DNA of 49,526 nt from Escherichia phage Henu7. A program made the translations under genes and the position numbers. Positions 7,082-45,600 of this stretch are shown here, in pieces; the first letter of the stretch is position 1, and the number at the start of each line of letters is the position of its first letter. Location of the stretch: sequence record NC_054894.1, one strand, 5' to 3'. Under the pieces are notes generated by a model. That model was not told where the DNA came from. It made no database searches and saw only the letters and a program-made list of their open reading frames with translations.

Positions 7082-7360
7082 ATGAAAAAGATGTTATCAG
7101 TAGTTGCTTTATCGCTTTCCATTGTCGGTTGCATGGATAAACCAAAAGCATATATTTGCGGAAATGAAGTGTTTGAGGTTACAAGCGAATACATGAAAGT
7201 TGTAAAAGGTAAAAACACAGGCGTTGTAATGGATAATATCAGCAAAAATAAATACAAGCTGTTTACGCCAATTGGAACAGCTTTTTACACTGTTAACGAT
7301 AGCACAATTGATGTTAGAGTCGGAATCTTTCAGCACACTTTAACTTGCGAGGTGAAATAA
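7082..7360 (+). CDS. small lipoprotein (moron; candidate superinfection-exclusion protein)
   Basis: Signal peptide with lipobox LSIVGC; AT-rich codon usage relative to neighbours; own upstream regulatory unit. Confidence 0.6.
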   Translation: MKKMLSVVALSLSIVGCMDKPKAYICGNEVFEVTSEYMKVVKGKNTGVVMDNISKNKYKLFTPIGTAFYTVNDSTIDVRVGIFQHTLTCEVK

Positions 7361-9092: not shown

Positions 9093-10211
9093 ATGATTCA
9101 GAAAATGACAGACCAGCAGTTTAAAGACGCACGAGCGGAGGGTAAAACCTACAAGCAGATCGCGGAGGAATTTGGCTTGAATGTTCGCACAGTTGAGCGA
9201 CGAGCGGCAAACCTTGCTCGCAAGGGTGAGACTGACGCGAAAGGCGCTCCAGGTTTTGCGGTTGTTCGCGAGTCAGTCCTTACGCGTGCGAACGGCGAGG
9301 AAGTTATGCGCTGGACTATCACCAACAAGGATAAAGAGCAGTTGGAGGCATTAATGCAAGCCGCTATGGAAGCATTCGCAGAGGAAGTGCCACGCCTTGA
9401 TCCTCAGCCTGAAAGCCGCAAAGACTACAGCGAGAGCCTAGCGCTATACCCAATCTTTGATATGCACATTGGCGCAATGGCTCACAAGCATGAGTGTGGT
9501 GAGAATTGGGATACGGCAACAGCCGAAAATGTCATGAATGACTTCTTTGATTATGCGGTTGAGTGTGCGCCAAATAGCGAGAAAGCCGTGCTCCTGATTG
9601 GTGGAGATATGCTTCACAGTGACGGCCTTGAGGCTGTAACACCTGCCAGCGGTCACGTTCTGGATCAGGATAGCCGCTACGCCAAACTTGTTTATGTCGC
9701 AATCCGAGCAACGCGCCGCGCTATCTCCTTGATGTTGACCAAGCACAAAGAGGTTGAAATTCAGGTGATCGAGGGCAATCATGACCAATCAGGCATGATC
9801 TGGCTACGCGCAGCAATGGCTGCGGCATACGAAAACGAGCCACGAGTTACGGTTGATGTTTCTCCCCGCGTGGTGCATCACACGCAGTACGGAAAAACCT
9901 TCCTCGCGTATCATCACGGTCACACCGTGCGCAAGCCTGAAACGTTATTGATGATGTGTGCGGCAGATTGGCGCGAGGATTTTGGCAAATCAAAATCAAT
10001 GTATGCTCATGTAGGCCATTGGCATCACCAGACCGTAACAGAAACCAGCCTGGGGATTGTTGAAGTTCACAGCACTATGGCGGCTAAAGATGCGTATGCG
10101 GCACGCGGCGGCTGGCGCTCTCGTCGTCGCGCGGCGGTTATCATCTACGACAAAGAGCACGGCGAGATCGGGAGATTTATGTTCTACCCTGAAATGATGG
10201 AGTCAAAATAA
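9093..10211 (+). CDS. HTH domain fused to calcineurin-like metallophosphoesterase
   Basis: N-terminal HTH YKQIAEEFGLNVRTVERR; metallophosphoesterase motifs DMHIG, GGDMLHSDG, GNHD, HHGH, GHWHH; RBS AAGAGGA. Confidence 0.6.
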   Translation: MIQKMTDQQFKDARAEGKTYKQIAEEFGLNVRTVERRAANLARKGETDAKGAPGFAVVRESVLTRANGEEVMRWTITNKDKEQLEALMQAAMEAFAEEVPRLDPQPESRKDYSESLALYPIFDMHIGAMAHKHECGENWDTATAENVMNDFFDYAVECAPNSEKAVLLIGGDMLHSDGLEAVTPASGHVLDQDSRYAKLVYVAIRATRRAISLMLTKHKEVEIQVIEGNHDQSGMIWLRAAMAAAYENEPRVTVDVSPRVVHHTQYGKTFLAYHHGHTVRKPETLLMMCAADWREDFGKSKSMYAHVGHWHHQTVTETSLGIVEVHSTMAAKDAYAARGGWRSRRRAAVIIYDKEHGEIGRFMFYPEMMESK

Positions 10212-10381
10212 TGAAAGTTAAATGCGTTGAGAATTCATCTAAAACACTGCCTTACTACGAGGGCTTTGTGTACGAGGCGGATACTTTACCTGGCGGGATG
10301 TATAAGATTAAAGATGAATCAGGGCAGCACATTATTGCGCCGCTAAAGGGGCATTATCTGGAGTTTTTACGGGTTGATTAA
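10211..10381 (+). CDS. small hypothetical protein
   Basis: ATG overlaps upstream stop (TAATG); followed directly by an intrinsic terminator. Confidence 0.4.
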   Translation: MKVKCVENSSKTLPYYEGFVYEADTLPGGMYKIKDESGQHIIAPLKGHYLEFLRVD

Positions 10382-10403
10382 CATTTAACTTCATGAGCTT
10401 ACA

Positions 10404-10434
10404 AAGGGTTAGCATTTGCTAGCCCTTTTTTTAT
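10404..10434 (+). terminator. intrinsic terminator
   Basis: Hairpin GGGTTAGCATTTGCTAGCCC followed by TTTTTTT; the stem itself contains a TAGCA...TGCTA palindrome. Confidence 0.75.
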
Positions 10435-10508
10435 TGTTTTGTTTTTACTCGTTGCTGGTTAACATACACACACTTGACTATTGACATTTAAAACAAGGAG
10501 ATCAGATT

Positions 10509-10724
10509 ATGAGAGAATTTTTAAACGCAGCTACCACCAGCACCGGAGGCGCGTCACTGGCTGGAGCGGCAACAGGTCAAATTACAATTGCGGTTGCTGG
10601 CCTTGTACTTATGGCTGCCTTTGGATTTTGGGGCGCTTACTTGCGCTGGAAAGATAGCAAGGCGCTGCGAGAGGCTTTGGATCGTGAAGATATCAAAGAG
10701 GCAATTCGAATCAGGGGGAAATAA
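10509..10724 (+). CDS. holin (probable pinholin)
   Basis: 71 aa with one strongly hydrophobic segment [21 protein letters not shown] and charged C-terminus; immediately upstream of endolysin; RBS AAGGAG. Confidence 0.6.
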
Positions 10725-10726
10725 TC

Positions 10727-11221
10727 ATGAGTTTACAGAGAAGCGCGGCATACGCTTTATTTGGCGCTGCGCTCTCGTTAACTTCTCCACTCCTGGAGGA
10801 GATCGAGGGCATCCGGTACAAGCCTTATAAAGATATTGCAGGAATCTGGACAGTCTGCGCGGGTATTACCGGATCTGACGTTGTGCTTGGTAAGACGTAC
10901 ACGCAGAGAGAATGTGACGCACTTCTTGCCAAGCATATCGGGATTGCAAAGGCAGAAGTCGATAAGCGCGTAAAGGTTGAGATACCGGACACTATGCGTG
11001 CGGCAATGTACTCCTTTACGTACAACGCTGGTACTGGAGCGTTTCGCAAGTCAACCATGCTCAAGAAGATCAACAATGGCGATCTTTATGGGGCGTGCGA
11101 CGAGCTTTGGAAATGGACGTATTACTACAATCCAAAAACGGGCAAGCGCGAGAAGTCCAAAGGTTTAAAAAACCGTCGCGCGGTTGAGTATAAATATTGC
11201 ACTAAGGATCTGAAAAAATGA
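10727..11221 (+). CDS. SAR endolysin (T4-lysozyme-type glycoside hydrolase with N-terminal signal-anchor-release domain)
   Basis: Gly/Ala-rich N-terminal hydrophobic domain; catalytic E-x8-D-x5-T pattern [22 protein letters not shown] like phage 21 R and T4 lysozyme. Confidence 0.8.
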
Positions 11222-11613
11222 AACGATTAGCTTTGGCGGTACTGGTTGCCGCCTCTCTTTCTGGTTGTTCAGCGTCAAGCGCTCTGAGCGGTTTAATCGG
11301 CAGCAAGCCGGAAATCACAGCACAGGCCGGAGCCGAAAACGTAAAGCAAACAGTAGGCGTGACGGCAAAGAATGACGAGAGCAGCAAGCAGGAAAGCACG
11401 ATCAAGGATTCGCAGGTTGGAAAGGTTGACTCCTCCAACAAAAAGAAGGTGAGCACTTCAAGCATCCAGGCTGAGACAATCACAGCCGACAAGATCGAGA
11501 TCAGAAACAGCGAGAGCGATTTGTATGTGATGTTCTTTGCGCTGGCTTGCTTATTTGTTGCTGGCTTTGCCGCTGGCGTTTTTTGGAAGGGCAGAAAAAA
11601 TAAAGGGGCATAA
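11218..11613 (+). CDS. unimolecular spanin (lipoprotein with C-terminal transmembrane domain)
   Basis: Lipobox LSGC at the N-terminus and C-terminal [24 protein letters not shown]; position after endolysin; architecture of the T1-type u-spanin. Confidence 0.7.
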
Positions 11614-11626
11614 TGCCCCTTTTTTC
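11595..11626. terminator. bidirectional intrinsic terminator
   Basis: GGGGCATAATGCCCC hairpin flanked by an A-run and a T-run; ends the lysis cassette (+) and the leftward early operon (-). Confidence 0.7.
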
Positions 11627-11745
11627 ATTCCAGTAGTCTGGCGTTGACTAATACAACTCCGTCCTCGTCGTGCAGGTTGTGCTCCTTTGCCGGATTAGCT
11701 CGCATATCGCTGTACAGGATCAGGAGCAGCGCCGCAATCATTTCG

Positions 11746-12138
11746 TCATGCGATACCGAATTTTTTGCGCAGTGCATCATAATCGCATCTATTAGATTTT
11801 GTGTTGAATAATTCATCGTCGCTTAACTCGTCAAGGTGAAACAGATCGTAAATGTATTTATTGCTCTCACCCTCCAGGCTATACAGTTCAAACCCAAACG
11901 GCCTCTTGTGCGAGCCGTGGCACGTCACCACGCCTTTATCTATCCCAAGATAGCCCAATGTAGCCATTCGCGGTATAAACTCAAGAGAGACGCTTGAGGC
12001 GAATTTGCGAGGCGTCATATTGGCGGCTCTTGCGAGCCGCTCACATTCTTTGTGCTGAAAAACAAATCTGGCTAAGTGCTGACGGTTAAACCAATCGTAA
12101 CTTTCGCAAAACTTATACAGATCCAGCAGAAACATCAT
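11746..12138 (-). CDS. hypothetical protein
   Basis: ATG follows the upstream stop by 3 nt (TGA TAA ATGATG), suggesting translational coupling. Confidence 0.5.
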   Translation of the reverse strand: MMFLLDLYKFCESYDWFNRQHLARFVFQHKECERLARAANMTPRKFASSVSLEFIPRMATLGYLGIDKGVVTCHGSHKRPFGFELYSLEGESNKYIYDLFHLDELSDDELFNTKSNRCDYDALRKKFGIA

Positions 12139-42637: not shown

Positions 42638-45600
42638 ATGATAAGCGGCAATAAGGGCGGCTCCTCTAAGCCGTATACGCCAAAGGAGATGGAGGATAAC
42701 CTGATCTCCATCAACAAAATCAAGATCCTCCTGGCGGTTTCAGACGGAGAGGTAGACGGCGAGTTTTCGCTAAAAAATCTCTACCTTGACGACGTGCCAG
42801 TGCAAAACGCAGACGGCTCGCTTAACTATAGCGGTGTTAGTGCTGAGTTCCGGCCAGGCACTCAAACGCAGGACTACATCAAGGGATTTTCAGACACGTC
42901 AAGCGAAGTAACAATTCAGCGAGATCTGGCGCAGAATAACCCTTACAGCATTGCGGTAACAAACAAATCACTATCTGCTATCAGGATCAAAATCCTGATG
43001 CCTCAGGGATACAAGCAGGAGGATAACGGCGATCTGGTTGGTGTATCAGTGCAATACGCGGTTGATATGGCTGTAGACGGCGGCTCATTCAAGCGAGTTC
43101 TGACTGATACGATCACTGGCAAGACAAAAAGCGGCTACGACCGCAGCCAGCGAATCGACCTGCCAGCATTCAACGAGCAGGTGATTTTGCGCGTTAGCCG
43201 AATCACGCCGGACTCTAACACAGGACGAGTTGTTGACGCGATCAGATTGCAGAGCTATGCGGAGGTTGTTGATGCAAAATTCCGTTACCCTCTGACTGGT
43301 CTTGTTTATGTTGAGTTTGATAGCGAGCTTTTCCCGACTCAGCTACCGAACATTTCTATCAAGAAGAAATGGAAGCTGATCAAGGTTCCTGTTAACTACG
43401 ATCCAGATTCGCGCACCTATAGCGGATCATGGAATGGTTTATTCAAGACTGCGTGGAGCAATAACCCTGCCTGGGTTCTGTATGACCTGATCACCAATCA
43501 GCGCTACGGACTCGACCAAAGGGAGCTTGGGATTGAGATCGACAAGTGGAGCATCTACGAGGCTGCGCAATATTGCGATCAGATGGTTCCAGATGGCAAG
43601 GGAGGTTTAGAGCCTCGCTATCTTTGTGATGTGGTTATCCAGAGCCAGATTGAGGCGTTTAACCTTATCCGCGATATTTGCTCAATCTTCCGTGGTATGA
43701 GCTTTTGGAACGGCGAGAGCCTTTCTATCGTGGTGGATAAGCCGCGCGATCCGTCTTACATTTTCAGCAATGACAACGTGGTAAACGGCGATTTTCAGTA
43801 CACATTTGCTAGCGAGAAAAGCATGTATACGCAGTGCAACGTGACTTTCGACGACGAGCAAAACATGTACAGCCAGGATATTGAGGGCGTTTTCGACACT
43901 GAGGCCGCTTTGCGTTTTGGTCACAATCCGACAAGTATCACAGCAATCGGATGCACACGACGCAGCGAGGCGAACCGACGAGGGCGCTGGATTCTCAAGA
44001 CTAACCTGCGCAGCACTACGGTAAACTTTGCAACAGGTCTTGAGGGTATGATCCCGACAATCGGAGACGTGATCGCAATCGCGGATAACTTCTGGTCAAG
44101 TAACTTGACGCTGAATCTTTCGGGGCGCGTCATGGAGGTTTCAGGGCTGCAAGTTTTCCTCCCGTTCCGAGTTGATGCGCGGCCTGGTGATTTTATCCTG
44201 ATAAACAAGCCGGACGGAAAGCCAGTTAAGCGCACTATCTCACGAGTTAGCGCAGACGGGAAAACTATTGAGTTAAACGTTGGCTTTGGTTTCGACGTTA
44301 AGCCGGACACGGTTTTCGCAATCGACAGGACTGATCTTGCGTTGCAGCAGTACGTTGTTACCGGAATAACAAGGGGCGACGATACGGAGCAATTCACGTA
44401 CTCAATAACGGCGGTCGAATACGATCCAAACAAGTACGACGAGATTGATTACGGAGTGAACATTGACGACAGGCCAACAAGCATTGTAAACCCTGGAGTG
44501 ATGAGAGCGCCTGAAAATGTGCAGGTGTCCTCTTACTCTCGCATTGTTCAGGGGCAGAGCGTAGAAACGATGGTTGTTAGCTGGGATAAAGTCGAATACG
44601 CAAGCTTGTACGATGTGCAATGGAGAAAGGACAATAGCAACTGGCTAAACGTTCCTCAGACTGCAAACAAAGAGGTTAGCGTTGAGGGTATTTACTCAGG
44701 CAACTACTTTGTAAGGGTTCGATCAGTATCCGCTTCTGGAAGCACATCGCCTTGGTCTGGCGTTGTTTCCGCCGCATTAACTGGCAAGGTTGGAGAGCCT
44801 AAAATGCCTATTAACTTGACAGCCTCAGATAATGAGATATTTGGGATCCGCGTCAAGTGGGGTATGCCGGAGGGTGCTGGAGATACTGCTTACATAGAGC
44901 TACAGCAAGCGCCGGACGTAGACGGAATGGCTAGCGAAGAAAACGCAACACTGCTAACTCTCGTTCCGTATCCTCAAATGGAGTATTGGCACGCAACGTT
45001 ACCACCTGGATATATCAACTGGTATCGAGTGCGAAGTGTTGACAGGATCGGAAACGTTTCTGCATGGACTGACTTTGTGCGCGGTATGTCGTCAACTAAC
45101 GTTGATGATGTTTTAGGCGACATTCTTGATGATATTTTAAACTCTGCTGGGTTTGAGGAGTTCAAAGAGAATGCCGTAGATACTGCAAACAAGGTTAAAG
45201 ACCAGGCGCAAAGCGTGATCCAGAATGCGCTAGCTATTGATACTAATCTACGCTGGAACCGAGTAGAAAACGGGAAGCGTAAAGCGGAGCACGGACAGGC
45301 GCTGGAGCTTATCGCTAACGAGACTGAGGCGCGAATTCAGGCGGTTGATGTTCTGCGCACTGAGTTTGACGAGGGTATCTCCTCTAACATTACAGAGGTT
45401 AAAACCCTTATCTCTAACGAGGCGGAGACGCGAGCGAGCCAGGTTCAGCAGCTTGAATCTACGTTCACAACAGAGATCGGAAAGACAAACGCAAACGTGA
45501 GTAGCGCACAGCAAGCGATTGCAAAAGAGACTGAGGCAAGGACTCAAGCGGTTAGCTCTCTTGACTCCAAGTTTACAGGGCAGATCAATGGCGTTAAGCA

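Follow-up and report, generated by a model that had tools for sequence, protein, structure and literature searches.

A T1-like host-lysis cassette encoding a holin, a SAR-type endolysin and a unimolecular spanin in Escherichia phage Henu7

Three closely spaced plus-strand ORFs (10509-10724, 10727-11221 and 11218-11613) of Escherichia phage Henu7 (NC_054894.1; all 49,526 nucleotides were analysed, and are called here the 49.5 kb window) raise the question of whether they together form a host-lysis module and, if so, to which of the known types its components belong. The original prediction had read them as a holin, an endolysin with a signal-anchor-release (SAR) domain, and a unimolecular spanin (u-spanin). 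Our comparisons bear this out, by orthology to gp13, gp12 and gp11 of phage T1, by the annotation of the T1 record and of near-identical genomes, and by the conservation of all the defining motifs in about 40 distinct relatives; the sequence features that had been described all lie at the positions given for them. The three genes, and the ribosome-binding site of the first, are:

10509..10724, plus strand: holin gene, 71 aa; PHROG 2877 'holin', E=4.6e-35; 58% identity with T1 gp13
10727..11221, plus strand: endolysin gene, 164 aa; muramidase of the T4-lysozyme type (GH24), SAR-like at its N-terminus; Pfam PF00959, E=8.9e-38
11218..11613, plus strand: unimolecular spanin gene, 131 aa; PHROG 1804 'Rz-like spanin', E=5.5e-49
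10495..10500, plus strand: holin Shine-Dalgarno sequence AAGGAG, 8 nt 5′ of the ATG, read from the sequence

The spanin start and the endolysin stop overlap as ATGA, and a Shine-Dalgarno-like site lies 5′ of every ORF of the cassette (AGGGGGA at 10713-10719 and TAAGGA at 11203-11208, in addition to the AAGGAG listed above). The genes 3′ of the spanin are on the minus strand, convergent with the cassette, and no tRNA or Rfam feature was found in the window. The order holin-endolysin-spanin is shared by 47 of 48 related loci; the 48th (L041) has no visible holin because its sequence begins only ~130 nt upstream of the endolysin gene. There is no Pfam or curated NCBIfam family for the holin or the spanin, and it is only the PHROGs that name both. 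We conclude, with a probability of about 0.9, that the three genes are a late lysis module, belonging to a T1-like siphophage (Drexlerviridae and Tempevirinae-like) and made up of a holin, a phage 21 R-type SAR lysozyme and a T1 gp11-type u-spanin. The three-gene module is real but not new, as the same annotation is already found in near-identical published genomes.

The holin has an uncharged stretch of 42 residues (4-45), followed by a highly charged C-terminal tail. Residues 25-45 are strongly hydrophobic (2.04) and are the sole segment whose hydropathy passes the customary transmembrane threshold; residues 4-24 are rich in Gly/Ala/Ser/Thr and weakly hydropathic (about 0.5-0.9, TMD1 of the phage 21-family holin EssD scoring 0.68), and no polar or charged loop separates the two putative helices. 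The single-sequence AlphaFold model is one long helix, and is uninformative on topology.

The cassette had also been taken to imply pinholin-type lysis timing. This does not follow: the SAR endolysin of phage P1 works with a canonical holin, so that a SAR endolysin alone is no proof of a pinholin, and the Henu7 holin has no similarity to the phage 21-type holin (BLASTP against EssD gave no alignment at E<=100). Its pinholin status is a weaker conclusion, drawn by analogy through a topology-based family annotation. The T1 record (AY216660) labels gp13 'pinholin class 2', yet notes '1 transmembrane domain, predicted N-out and C-in', and we found no experimental test of pinholin status for T1 gp13 or its relatives in the literature searched. 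It is possible, if rather unlikely, that the Henu7 protein is not a pinholin, but either a single-helix N-out/C-in protein or a canonical large-hole former, beside an SAR-type endolysin that merely needs no holes. The hydropathy profile (residues 4-24 lying at ~0.5), the single transmembrane domain predicted in T1, the dissimilarity to EssD and the known pairing of canonical holin and SAR endolysin, as in P1, would all fit this reading, as would the absence of a dual-start antiholin: the gene has one ATG only, and an in-frame TGA at 10482-10484 means that there is no alternative start upstream of it, although a dual start is not a strict requirement for the pinholin class. Against it, 42 uncharged residues suffice for a helical hairpin, and the first half resembles TMD1 of EssD and S21 in both composition and hydropathy, and is conserved at least as much as the second helix (sequence entropy of 0.74 versus 0.95 bits). 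Furthermore, the holin gene adjoins that of a SAR-type endolysin, and this pairing with an endolysin bearing an N-terminal hydrophobic segment recurs in the 47 related loci showing both genes; Young-lab-style annotations also give class II pinholin. U-spanins, for their part, accompany both types of lysis system (PMC6139136). We prefer to regard the holin as probably pinholin-like.

The second gene encodes an enzyme of T4-lysozyme-type fold, with E27, D36 and T42 as its catalytic triad:

10742..10795, plus strand: SAR-like N-terminal segment, residues 6-23 after R5; no Cys
10805..10852, plus strand: catalytic triad codons, E27 (10805-10807), D36 (10832-10834) and T42 (10850-10852), of an E-x8-D-x5-T motif

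The triad is invariant in 41 distinct orthologues and aligns with the same motif in PDB 3HDE, the phage 21 SAR endolysin, which the Henu7 protein matches with E=1.8e-45 over query residues 2-158, the alignment thus beginning inside the N-terminal segment; 3HDF (phage 21 R) and 4ZPU (RrrD) are matched with E about 1e-45. These findings uphold the proposal of an SAR-type N-terminal domain joined to an E/D/T triad. Residues 6-23 are 18 uncharged residues, 56% of them Gly/Ala/Ser/Thr, with a 19-residue Kyte-Doolittle mean of 1.10. An uncharged stretch of 15-19 residues after a basic residue is kept in the 41 distinct orthologues, with high sequence entropy, and none of them has a Cys in this segment, which distinguishes these enzymes from the P1 Lyz class. 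As a comparator we used RrrD, the prophage-encoded homologue of the phage 21 SAR endolysin, which is itself validated, and the Henu7 segment lies at the weak and short end of the range: its Kyte-Doolittle mean of 1.10 compares with 2.11 in RrrD, and its summed insertion energy is about +6.8 kcal/mol versus +0.8 kcal/mol. A segment of only 18 residues, far less hydrophobic than its RrrD counterpart, does not guarantee export and retention. Tethering at the membrane and subsequent release are inferred from homology; Sec dependence has been reported for another class II SAR endolysin of the Drexlerviridae (bioRxiv 10.64898/2026.09.09.750462).

These properties would also suit an endolysin whose N-terminus is a cleavable Sec signal peptide, leading to a secreted enzyme, or is no export signal at all. 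A short and weakly hydrophobic segment is typical of signal-peptide h-regions, the small residues A15 and S17 could form a -3/-1 cleavage site (read from the sequence), and the 3HDE alignment has a 6-residue gap after the SAR-like segment, that is, six residues of the phage 21 R linker leading to the catalytic Glu are missing here. We nevertheless consider this improbable: the homology to phage 21 R is full-length and includes the N-terminal segment, the segment is present in 41/41 orthologues, Pro21 comes after the best polar c-region position, and the annotation of T1 gp12 and its relatives is SAR endolysin throughout. After release, the segment of R21-type enzymes is said, from the work of Sun et al. 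in 2009, to become part of the active fold, and cleavage would therefore be unexpected. A phage 21 R-type SAR lysozyme is the reading that we carry forward.

How the cassette is transcribed is a separate question, for which the region upstream of the holin has to be considered together with the terminators on either side:

10211..10381, plus strand: small gene for a DUF7244 (SH3-like) protein, 56 aa, immediately 5′ of the cassette; Pfam PF23896, E=1e-27
10403..10428, plus strand: intrinsic terminator hairpin with T-run, separating the DUF7244 gene from the cassette; fold of -16.4 kcal/mol, z=-5.1
10460..10465, plus strand: TAACAT, a -10-like TAnnAT, candidate core promoter element
10474..10479, plus strand: TTGACT, first hexamer of the proposed promoter pair; TTAATT in IsaakIselin and other close relatives
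10481..10486, plus strand: TTGACA, second hexamer, at -28 from the holin ATG; a conserved element
11602..11622, no strand assigned: hairpin of a bidirectional terminator, lying between the cassette and the minus-strand genes that run towards it; folds of -13.4 and -13.9 kcal/mol, one value per strand

The DUF7244 protein, whose gene had been missed in the original prediction, is 45% identical to T1 Orf14 and has no hydrophobic or export segment; DUF7244 was recently proposed as an accessory of the Drexlerviridae lysis module (PMC13164509).

A hairpin with T-run is also found at the 10403-10428 position in the aligned upstream regions of relatives, and the spanin stop codon lies in the loop of the 11602-11622 hairpin. 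With two flanking terminators, the cassette needs a promoter of its own somewhere within 10429-10508. The TTGACT and TTGACA hexamers at 10474-10486 had been put forward for this role as a possible promoter pair; both are present, but as the promoter of the cassette they are not credible. That they are the -35 elements of a sigma-70 promoter driving lysis is in our judgement a poor prospect, even though TTGACA, an 18-nt spacer and GATTAT score 10/12 in a consensus scan, and among the 32 upstream regions compared, which are diverged and whose flanks vary, 15 have TTGAC[A/T] at exactly -28. The sole -10 partner, GATTAT at 10505-10510, includes the A and T of the holin start codon, so that the transcript would start inside the holin ORF, and lack the holin's ATG and ribosome-binding site. 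For TTGACT no -10 partner exists, and even relatives that are 96-97% identical do not conserve it. TTGAC is absent from T1, from the L009-L014 group of loci and from the Klebsiella-phage group, and a further locus (L017) carries it at -30 without a -10 partner. Promoter-like sites in the region are as many as chance would give (3 found, against 2.6 +/- 1.6 expected from shuffles). Searching the window for a repeated promoter motif with TTGACTATTGACA and TGGTTAACATAC, at <=3 mismatches, gave matches no commoner than in shuffles, and the only repeats in the upstream region are the terminator hairpin and one short palindrome.

By contrast, a different element is conserved in every relative compared: TAnnAT is found at the position aligned with 10460-10465 in 32/32 upstream regions long enough to compare, T1 included. 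Its -35 partner in Henu7 is weak (TTTTGT at 10437-10442, read from the sequence), and by inference only we name TAACAT as a candidate core promoter element; we found no transcription-start literature for Drexlerviridae. It is very unlikely, in our estimate, that TTGAC[A/T] at -28 and the nAnnAT ending in the holin start codon form a real internal promoter, with a transcript from just inside the holin ORF. Were this so, the upstream TAnnAT promoter would yield the full-length message, and a holin-less one could supply the spanin and the harmless, membrane-tethered endolysin uncoupled from the holin 'clock', a transcriptional setting of holin:endolysin stoichiometry that is undescribed for pinholin/SAR-endolysin systems.

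The third gene carries the signals of both membranes in one protein:

11257..11268, plus strand: lipobox L14-S15-G16-C17; Cys17 is the predicted lipidated first residue of the mature protein
11521..11586, plus strand: C-terminal transmembrane domain, residues 102-123, followed by the basic tail KGRKNKGA

The lipobox LSGC is identical in T1 gp11, to which the protein aligns, in the comparison originally called for, with 46% identity (E=5e-32). In 40 distinct orthologues the lipobox is kept and its Cys invariant, and the +2 residue, Ser18 in Henu7, is Ser or Ala in 40/40; Ser18, rather than Asp, at +2 indicates outer-membrane sorting. Residues 102-123 have a 19-residue Kyte-Doolittle mean of 2.46, and single-sequence AlphaFold gives a helix at 100-127 with pLDDT about 80. 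The C-terminal helix is hydrophobic in 40/40 orthologues and varies in sequence, the membrane segments of the spanin being its most variable parts, but always hydrophobic. The single-protein u-spanin architecture that had been proposed is thus found here and in the orthologues; lipidation itself is predicted. The periplasmic part has no Cys, here or in 40/40 orthologues, in agreement with PMC6139136; a part expected to be beta-strand-rich in spanins of the T1 gp11 type, it shows in the single-sequence model no secondary structure, at low pLDDT (about 46-53), and a sequence search of the PDB returned no solved relative. T1 gp11, with the native lipobox LSGC, complements a lambda Rz/Rz1 defect, and it is for T1 gp11 only that complementation and lipidation in vivo are established (PMC6139136).

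The spanin gene is the last of the cassette, which has no separate i-spanin and o-spanin genes, and its product is the only one in the 49.5 kb window to carry both a lipobox and, downstream of it, a hydrophobic segment of membrane grade. We looked for an embedded o-spanin, as its presence had been named as evidence against a u-spanin: the other plus-strand ORFs inside the spanin gene (11265-11375, 11372-11452 and 11537-11647) encode no cysteine, and there is therefore none. Elsewhere in the window, the single further plausible lipoprotein gene (7082-7360) was considered for a second spanin system and rejected, having neither a membrane helix nor an adjacent i-spanin-like gene. That the third gene encodes instead a lipoprotein with another role, a Cor/TrbK-like one in entry or superinfection exclusion, can be dismissed as scarcely conceivable, since the weak matches that suggest it (PHROG 1119 'Cor', E=0.006; TIGR04359 TrbK, E=0.0026, 17.7 bits where the cut-off is 23) are below threshold and confined to the signal-peptide end, while the strong matches are to the spanin PHROG 1804 and to the experimentally characterised T1 gp11 (PMC6139136), and T1 likewise has the C-terminal helix, the place behind the endolysin and the coupling through ATGA.

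We propose that the holin, SAR lysozyme and u-spanin are expressed from one transcription unit between the two intrinsic terminators, and that each of the three proteins would deal with one layer of the Gram-negative envelope. The holin would build up in the inner membrane, then permeabilise and depolarise it at a fixed moment, probably as a pinholin-like small-hole former by analogy, with a stable helix at residues 25-45 and the weakly hydrophobic residues 4-24 possibly releasable. The endolysin, as a cysteine-free SAR lysozyme of class II (the phage 21 R type), would leave the cytoplasm through Sec and stay inactive on the membrane, anchored there by residues 6-23, a tether ending three residues before the catalytic Glu27. 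Depolarisation could then lead, if homology is a guide, to its release and refolding, and to cleavage of peptidoglycan via E27/D36/T42. Meanwhile the spanin, lipidated at Cys17 in the outer membrane and anchored by helix 102-123 in the inner one, would thread the peptidoglycan mesh with its 84-residue cysteine-free periplasmic segment; once the wall is degraded, this segment would collapse and the inner and outer membranes fuse, as in the published gp11 model.

The finding has little importance beyond correct annotation. It classes the window as a genome, complete or nearly so, of the Drexlerviridae (Tempevirinae/Henuseptimavirus-like), and identifies its lysis genes should the endolysin or the spanin be wanted as reagents. 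It also adds one more orthologue for family-wide questions, such as the type of holin in the T1 family, membrane fusion by u-spanins and the role of the cytoplasmic SH3-like DUF7244 protein; the conserved upstream elements mapped here could guide transcription-start mapping.

Considering how this cassette compares with known systems, the closest are those of Enterobacter phage vB_EclS_AS5 (OR753409), Klebsiella phage vB_KppS-Samwise, and the Escherichia phages IsaakIselin/Bas10 (MZ501077) and JohannLBurckhardt, with 94.5-97.7% nucleotide identity over 10400-11700; for vB_EclS_AS5 and IsaakIselin (both Drexlerviridae, Tempevirinae) the cassettes share 96-98% DNA identity. These close relatives annotate theirs as holin, endolysin and u-spanin (the term u-spanin being that of IsaakIselin). 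The IsaakIselin proteins are 97-99% identical to those of Henu7, with few substitutions only, and TTAATT stands for TTGACT at 10474. The nearest genomes belong to the Drexlerviridae, Tempevirinae and Henuseptimavirus. The best genome match to the first 25 kb of the window has 89% coverage at 93.9% identity, values that probably make the window a distinct species within the same genus.

In T1 (AY216660 42878-43982) the cassette consists of gp13, a holin annotated as a pinholin, gp12, a SAR endolysin, and gp11, the prototype u-spanin. The same three genes stand in the same order, with 71/162/133 aa in T1 and 71/164/131 aa in Henu7, and are orthologues at 58, 65 and 46% identity respectively; the E27/D36/T42 positions and the LSGC lipobox are common to both. 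The neighbourhood is syntenic (exonuclease, DUF7244, holin, endolysin, spanin, then convergent genes), and both cassettes have a terminator at each end. However, in T1 an HNH endonuclease gene, missing from the window, stands between those for the exonuclease and DUF7244, there is no TTGAC element 5′ of the holin, and the C-terminal helix of gp11 is entirely different in sequence from that of the Henu7 spanin. A T1-like classification, as originally offered, holds at the level of the family but not beyond it: T1 is a member of the Tunavirinae, whereas the nearest genomes here are Tempevirinae, and the alignment with T1 takes in only 41% of the window, with ~69% nucleotide identity.

The phage 21 and DLP12 systems, made up of S21 or EssD, R21 or RrrD, and Rz/Rz1 or RzpD/RzoD, resemble that of Henu7 most in the endolysin, which is clearly homologous (E about 1e-45), shares the triad and likewise has no cysteine in its N-terminal segment, although this segment is 6 residues shorter in Henu7 than in RrrD/R21 and far less hydrophobic. 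EssD is, like the Henu7 holin, a protein of 71 aa, and has a parallel hydropathy profile of weak first segment, strong second segment and charged tail; yet the two have no detectable sequence similarity, and the Henu7 holin lacks both the charged inter-helix loop and the dual start. For disruption of the outer membrane, phage 21 and DLP12 use an embedded two-gene pair of i-spanin and o-spanin, where Henu7 has one protein.

Three + strand ORFs, in the order holin, endolysin and spanin, exactly occupy the interval 10509-11613, and each has a Shine-Dalgarno-like site 7-9 nt 5′ of it. The endolysin and spanin genes overlap by ATGA; intrinsic-terminator-like hairpins (n=2) lie one at each end of the cassette; and the genes 3′ of it are on the minus strand, convergent with it.

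Features of the lysis cassette (coordinates, strand where applicable, description)
10403-10428, upstream terminator-like hairpin with T-run (fold -16.4 kcal/mol, z=-5.1)
10495-10500, +, Shine-Dalgarno-like AAGGAG, holin
10509-10724, +, holin ORF, 71 aa
10713-10719, +, Shine-Dalgarno-like AGGGGGA, endolysin
10727-11221, +, endolysin ORF, 164 aa
11203-11208, +, Shine-Dalgarno-like TAAGGA, spanin
11218-11613, +, spanin ORF, 131 aa
11602-11622, downstream two-way hairpin, spanin stop codon inside the loop

Matches of the three products (T1 protein; PHROGs match)
Holin: gp13, 58% identity, E=3e-29; holin, E=4.6e-35
Endolysin: gp12, 65% identity, E=2e-78; endolysin, E=8e-54
Spanin: gp11, 46% identity, E=5e-32; Rz-like spanin, E=5.5e-49

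The curated T1 record (AY216660) names gp13, gp12 and gp11 'pinholin class 2', 'SAR endolysin' and 'u-spanin', and in Escherichia phage IsaakIselin (BASEL Bas10), whose sequence is 96.5% identical over the 1.3 kb around the cassette, the genes are labelled holin, endolysin and u-spanin. Over the same 1.3 kb, identity is 97.7% with Enterobacter phage vB_EclS_AS5 and 97.3% with Klebsiella phage Samwise. With this T1 orthology, and with near-identical genomes so annotated, the original prediction of a holin, a SAR-type endolysin and a unimolecular spanin (u-spanin) is right in its core: the observation is real, and the cassette is a textbook T1-family one, already annotated and not new.

The IsaakIselin record is placed in Drexlerviridae; Tempevirinae; Henuseptimavirus, and the window seems to hold all or nearly all of a Henuseptimavirus-like genome; its 49.5 kb gave neither a tRNA gene nor an Rfam match at threshold. 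Across the first 25 kb its best match, vB_EclS_AS5, aligns over 89% at 93.9% identity, which makes a distinct species probable. With T1, the alignment extends to only 41% of the window, at ~69% nucleotide identity, yet both have the same local order of exonuclease, small DUF7244 gene, holin, endolysin, spanin and then convergent genes; the proposed T1-like classification therefore holds at family level and not for Tunavirus. The 372-aa 'DNA repair exonuclease' (9093-10211, +; phrog_704, E=1e-148) shares 57% identity with the SbcD-like exonuclease of T1 and has an N-terminal helix-turn-helix-like segment, residues 13-45 giving sigma-70 region 4 and HTH Pfam matches, all slightly under curated cut-offs. 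Among the convergent genes, the 3′ end of a 130-aa gene (11746-12138, -; phrog_2794) shares 71 nt with a 63-aa ORF (11625-11816, -; phrog_9539, E=5e-20). The two ORFs and their overlap, which is in the +1 frame in every case, are conserved in 48/48 related loci, T1 included, as well as in the window. Neither T1, where it lies at about 43993-44196 on the minus strand, nor IsaakIselin has the small ORF annotated; it may be either an overlapping gene that has been conserved or the product of a frameshift.

The spanin has both elements of the predicted architecture: an N-terminal lipobox, LSGC with Cys17, identical to that of T1 gp11 (PMC6139136), and a strongly hydrophobic segment at residues 102-123 (2.46) followed by a basic tail, modelled by AlphaFold as a helix (100-127, pLDDT about 80). 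Ser18 at +2 indicates outer-membrane sorting, and the 84 residues between lipobox and C-terminal helix contain no Cys. These properties are kept in 40/40 distinct orthologues, in which the lipobox and N-terminal periplasmic stretch are most conserved; the signal peptide and C-terminal helix are most variable (about 1.8 bits) and hydrophobic throughout, a pattern expected for anchors on which the constraint is purely physico-chemical. No second, embedded o-spanin was found, the alternative-frame ORFs within the gene lacking Cys, and no other ORF of the window pairs a lipobox with a downstream membrane-grade segment. T1 gp11, the prototype u-spanin, complements the lambda Rz/Rz1 lysis defect, and its extended periplasmic domain is modelled as collapsing once the wall is gone, with fusion of inner and outer membranes (PMC6139136); at about 0.33 nm per residue, the 84 residues here would have to be mostly extended to span the periplasm. 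A second predicted lipoprotein gene (7082-7360, +; 92 aa, lipobox IVGC, Cys17, phrog_7420), away from the lysis genes and without a membrane helix, could encode a surface or exclusion lipoprotein.

The endolysin matches Pfam Phage_lysozyme (E=8.9e-38), and the predicted lysozyme triad is present as E27-x8-D36-x5-T42, invariant in 41/41 distinct orthologues (from 48 related loci). Its best solved relatives are phage 21 endolysin (3HDE, 3HDF) and E. coli RrrD (4ZPU), at E about 1e-45; in the alignment it lacks six residues between its N-terminal segment and the catalytic Glu. The alignment begins at residue 2, within the N-terminal hydrophobic segment, and residues 6-23, which follow R5, are 56% Gly/Ala/Ser/Thr and Cys-free, and so match the class II SAR pattern of phage 21 R, not that of P1 Lyz. 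However, the 19-residue Kyte-Doolittle mean is 1.10, clearly below that of RrrD (2.11), so that a cleavable signal peptide is a conceivable, less favoured alternative; the segment of T1 gp12 is equally weak (1.13). Homology and conservation suggest that the segment would tether the enzyme to the membrane and later release it. In a 2026 preprint, lysis by another Drexlerviridae class II SAR endolysin is reported to be azide-sensitive and Sec-dependent (bioRxiv 10.64898/2026.09.09.750462).

The proposed promoter pair at 10474-10486 fared worse. Both hexamers, TTGACT and TTGACA, exist, and a consensus scan pairs TTGACA (10481) across 18 nt with GATTAT (10505-10510); this -10 element takes in the first two bases of the holin start codon, so the transcript would begin inside the holin ORF and omit both that codon and the ribosome-binding site. 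For TTGACT there is no -10 partner, and IsaakIselin has TTAATT in its place; promoter-like sites in the region are as numerous as shuffling predicts; the evidence is against these hexamers as the cassette promoter. Of the 32 upstream regions compared, 15 do carry TTGAC[A/T] (10481-10486 in the window) at exactly -28 relative to the ATG, with varying flanks; it is absent from T1, from one group of related loci (L009-L014) and from the Klebsiella-phage group. TAnnAT (TAACAT, 10460-10465), shortly after the terminator and with only a weak -35 partner, is kept in 32/32, T1 included. Neither motif recurs above chance elsewhere in the window, and we found no transcription-start data for Drexlerviridae in the literature.

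Directly upstream of the cassette, and not part of the original prediction, is a 56-aa ORF (10211-10381, +) whose product is an SH3-like DUF7244 protein (PF23896, E=1e-27), 45% identical to T1 Orf14 and encoded in 17/49 loci, window included. A 2026 paper describes DUF7244 as a 'shell' component found only adjoining Drexlerviridae lysis cassettes, and proposes an accessory lysis-module protein modulating endolysin (PMC13164509). The protein lacks any export signal or hydrophobic segment, and between its gene and the holin lies a strong terminator; the proposed wall-binding role is not obvious, since nanometre-scale holes would not let a cytoplasmic protein through to the peptidoglycan.

Pinholin-type timing had been taken to follow from the cassette's architecture. 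A SAR endolysin does not logically imply it, and both types of system include examples with u-spanins (PMC6139136). The 'class II pinholin' label that published annotations give this holin family comes from predicted topology, the T1 record giving gp13 one predicted helix only, and we found no experimental test of pinholin behaviour for a T1-family holin in the available literature. Given the consensus annotation, we rate pinholin behaviour as somewhat better than an even bet. Residues 4-45 of the holin form a single uncharged run of 42 residues, and its C-terminal tail is highly charged. Within the run, residues 25-45 alone (2.04) pass the usual transmembrane threshold, residues 4-24 being weakly hydrophobic and rich in Gly/Ala/Ser/Thr. 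At 0.74 bits, against 0.95 bits for the strong helix, this weak segment is at least as conserved, which argues that it is functional. The layout parallels that of EssD, the DLP12 homologue of the phage 21 pinholin, which is likewise 71 aa long, its first helix weak (0.68) and its second strong (1.72), although no sequence similarity is detectable. Unlike EssD and the phage 21 pinholin, the holin has no charged inter-helix loop and, because of an in-frame TGA at 10482-10484, no dual start.
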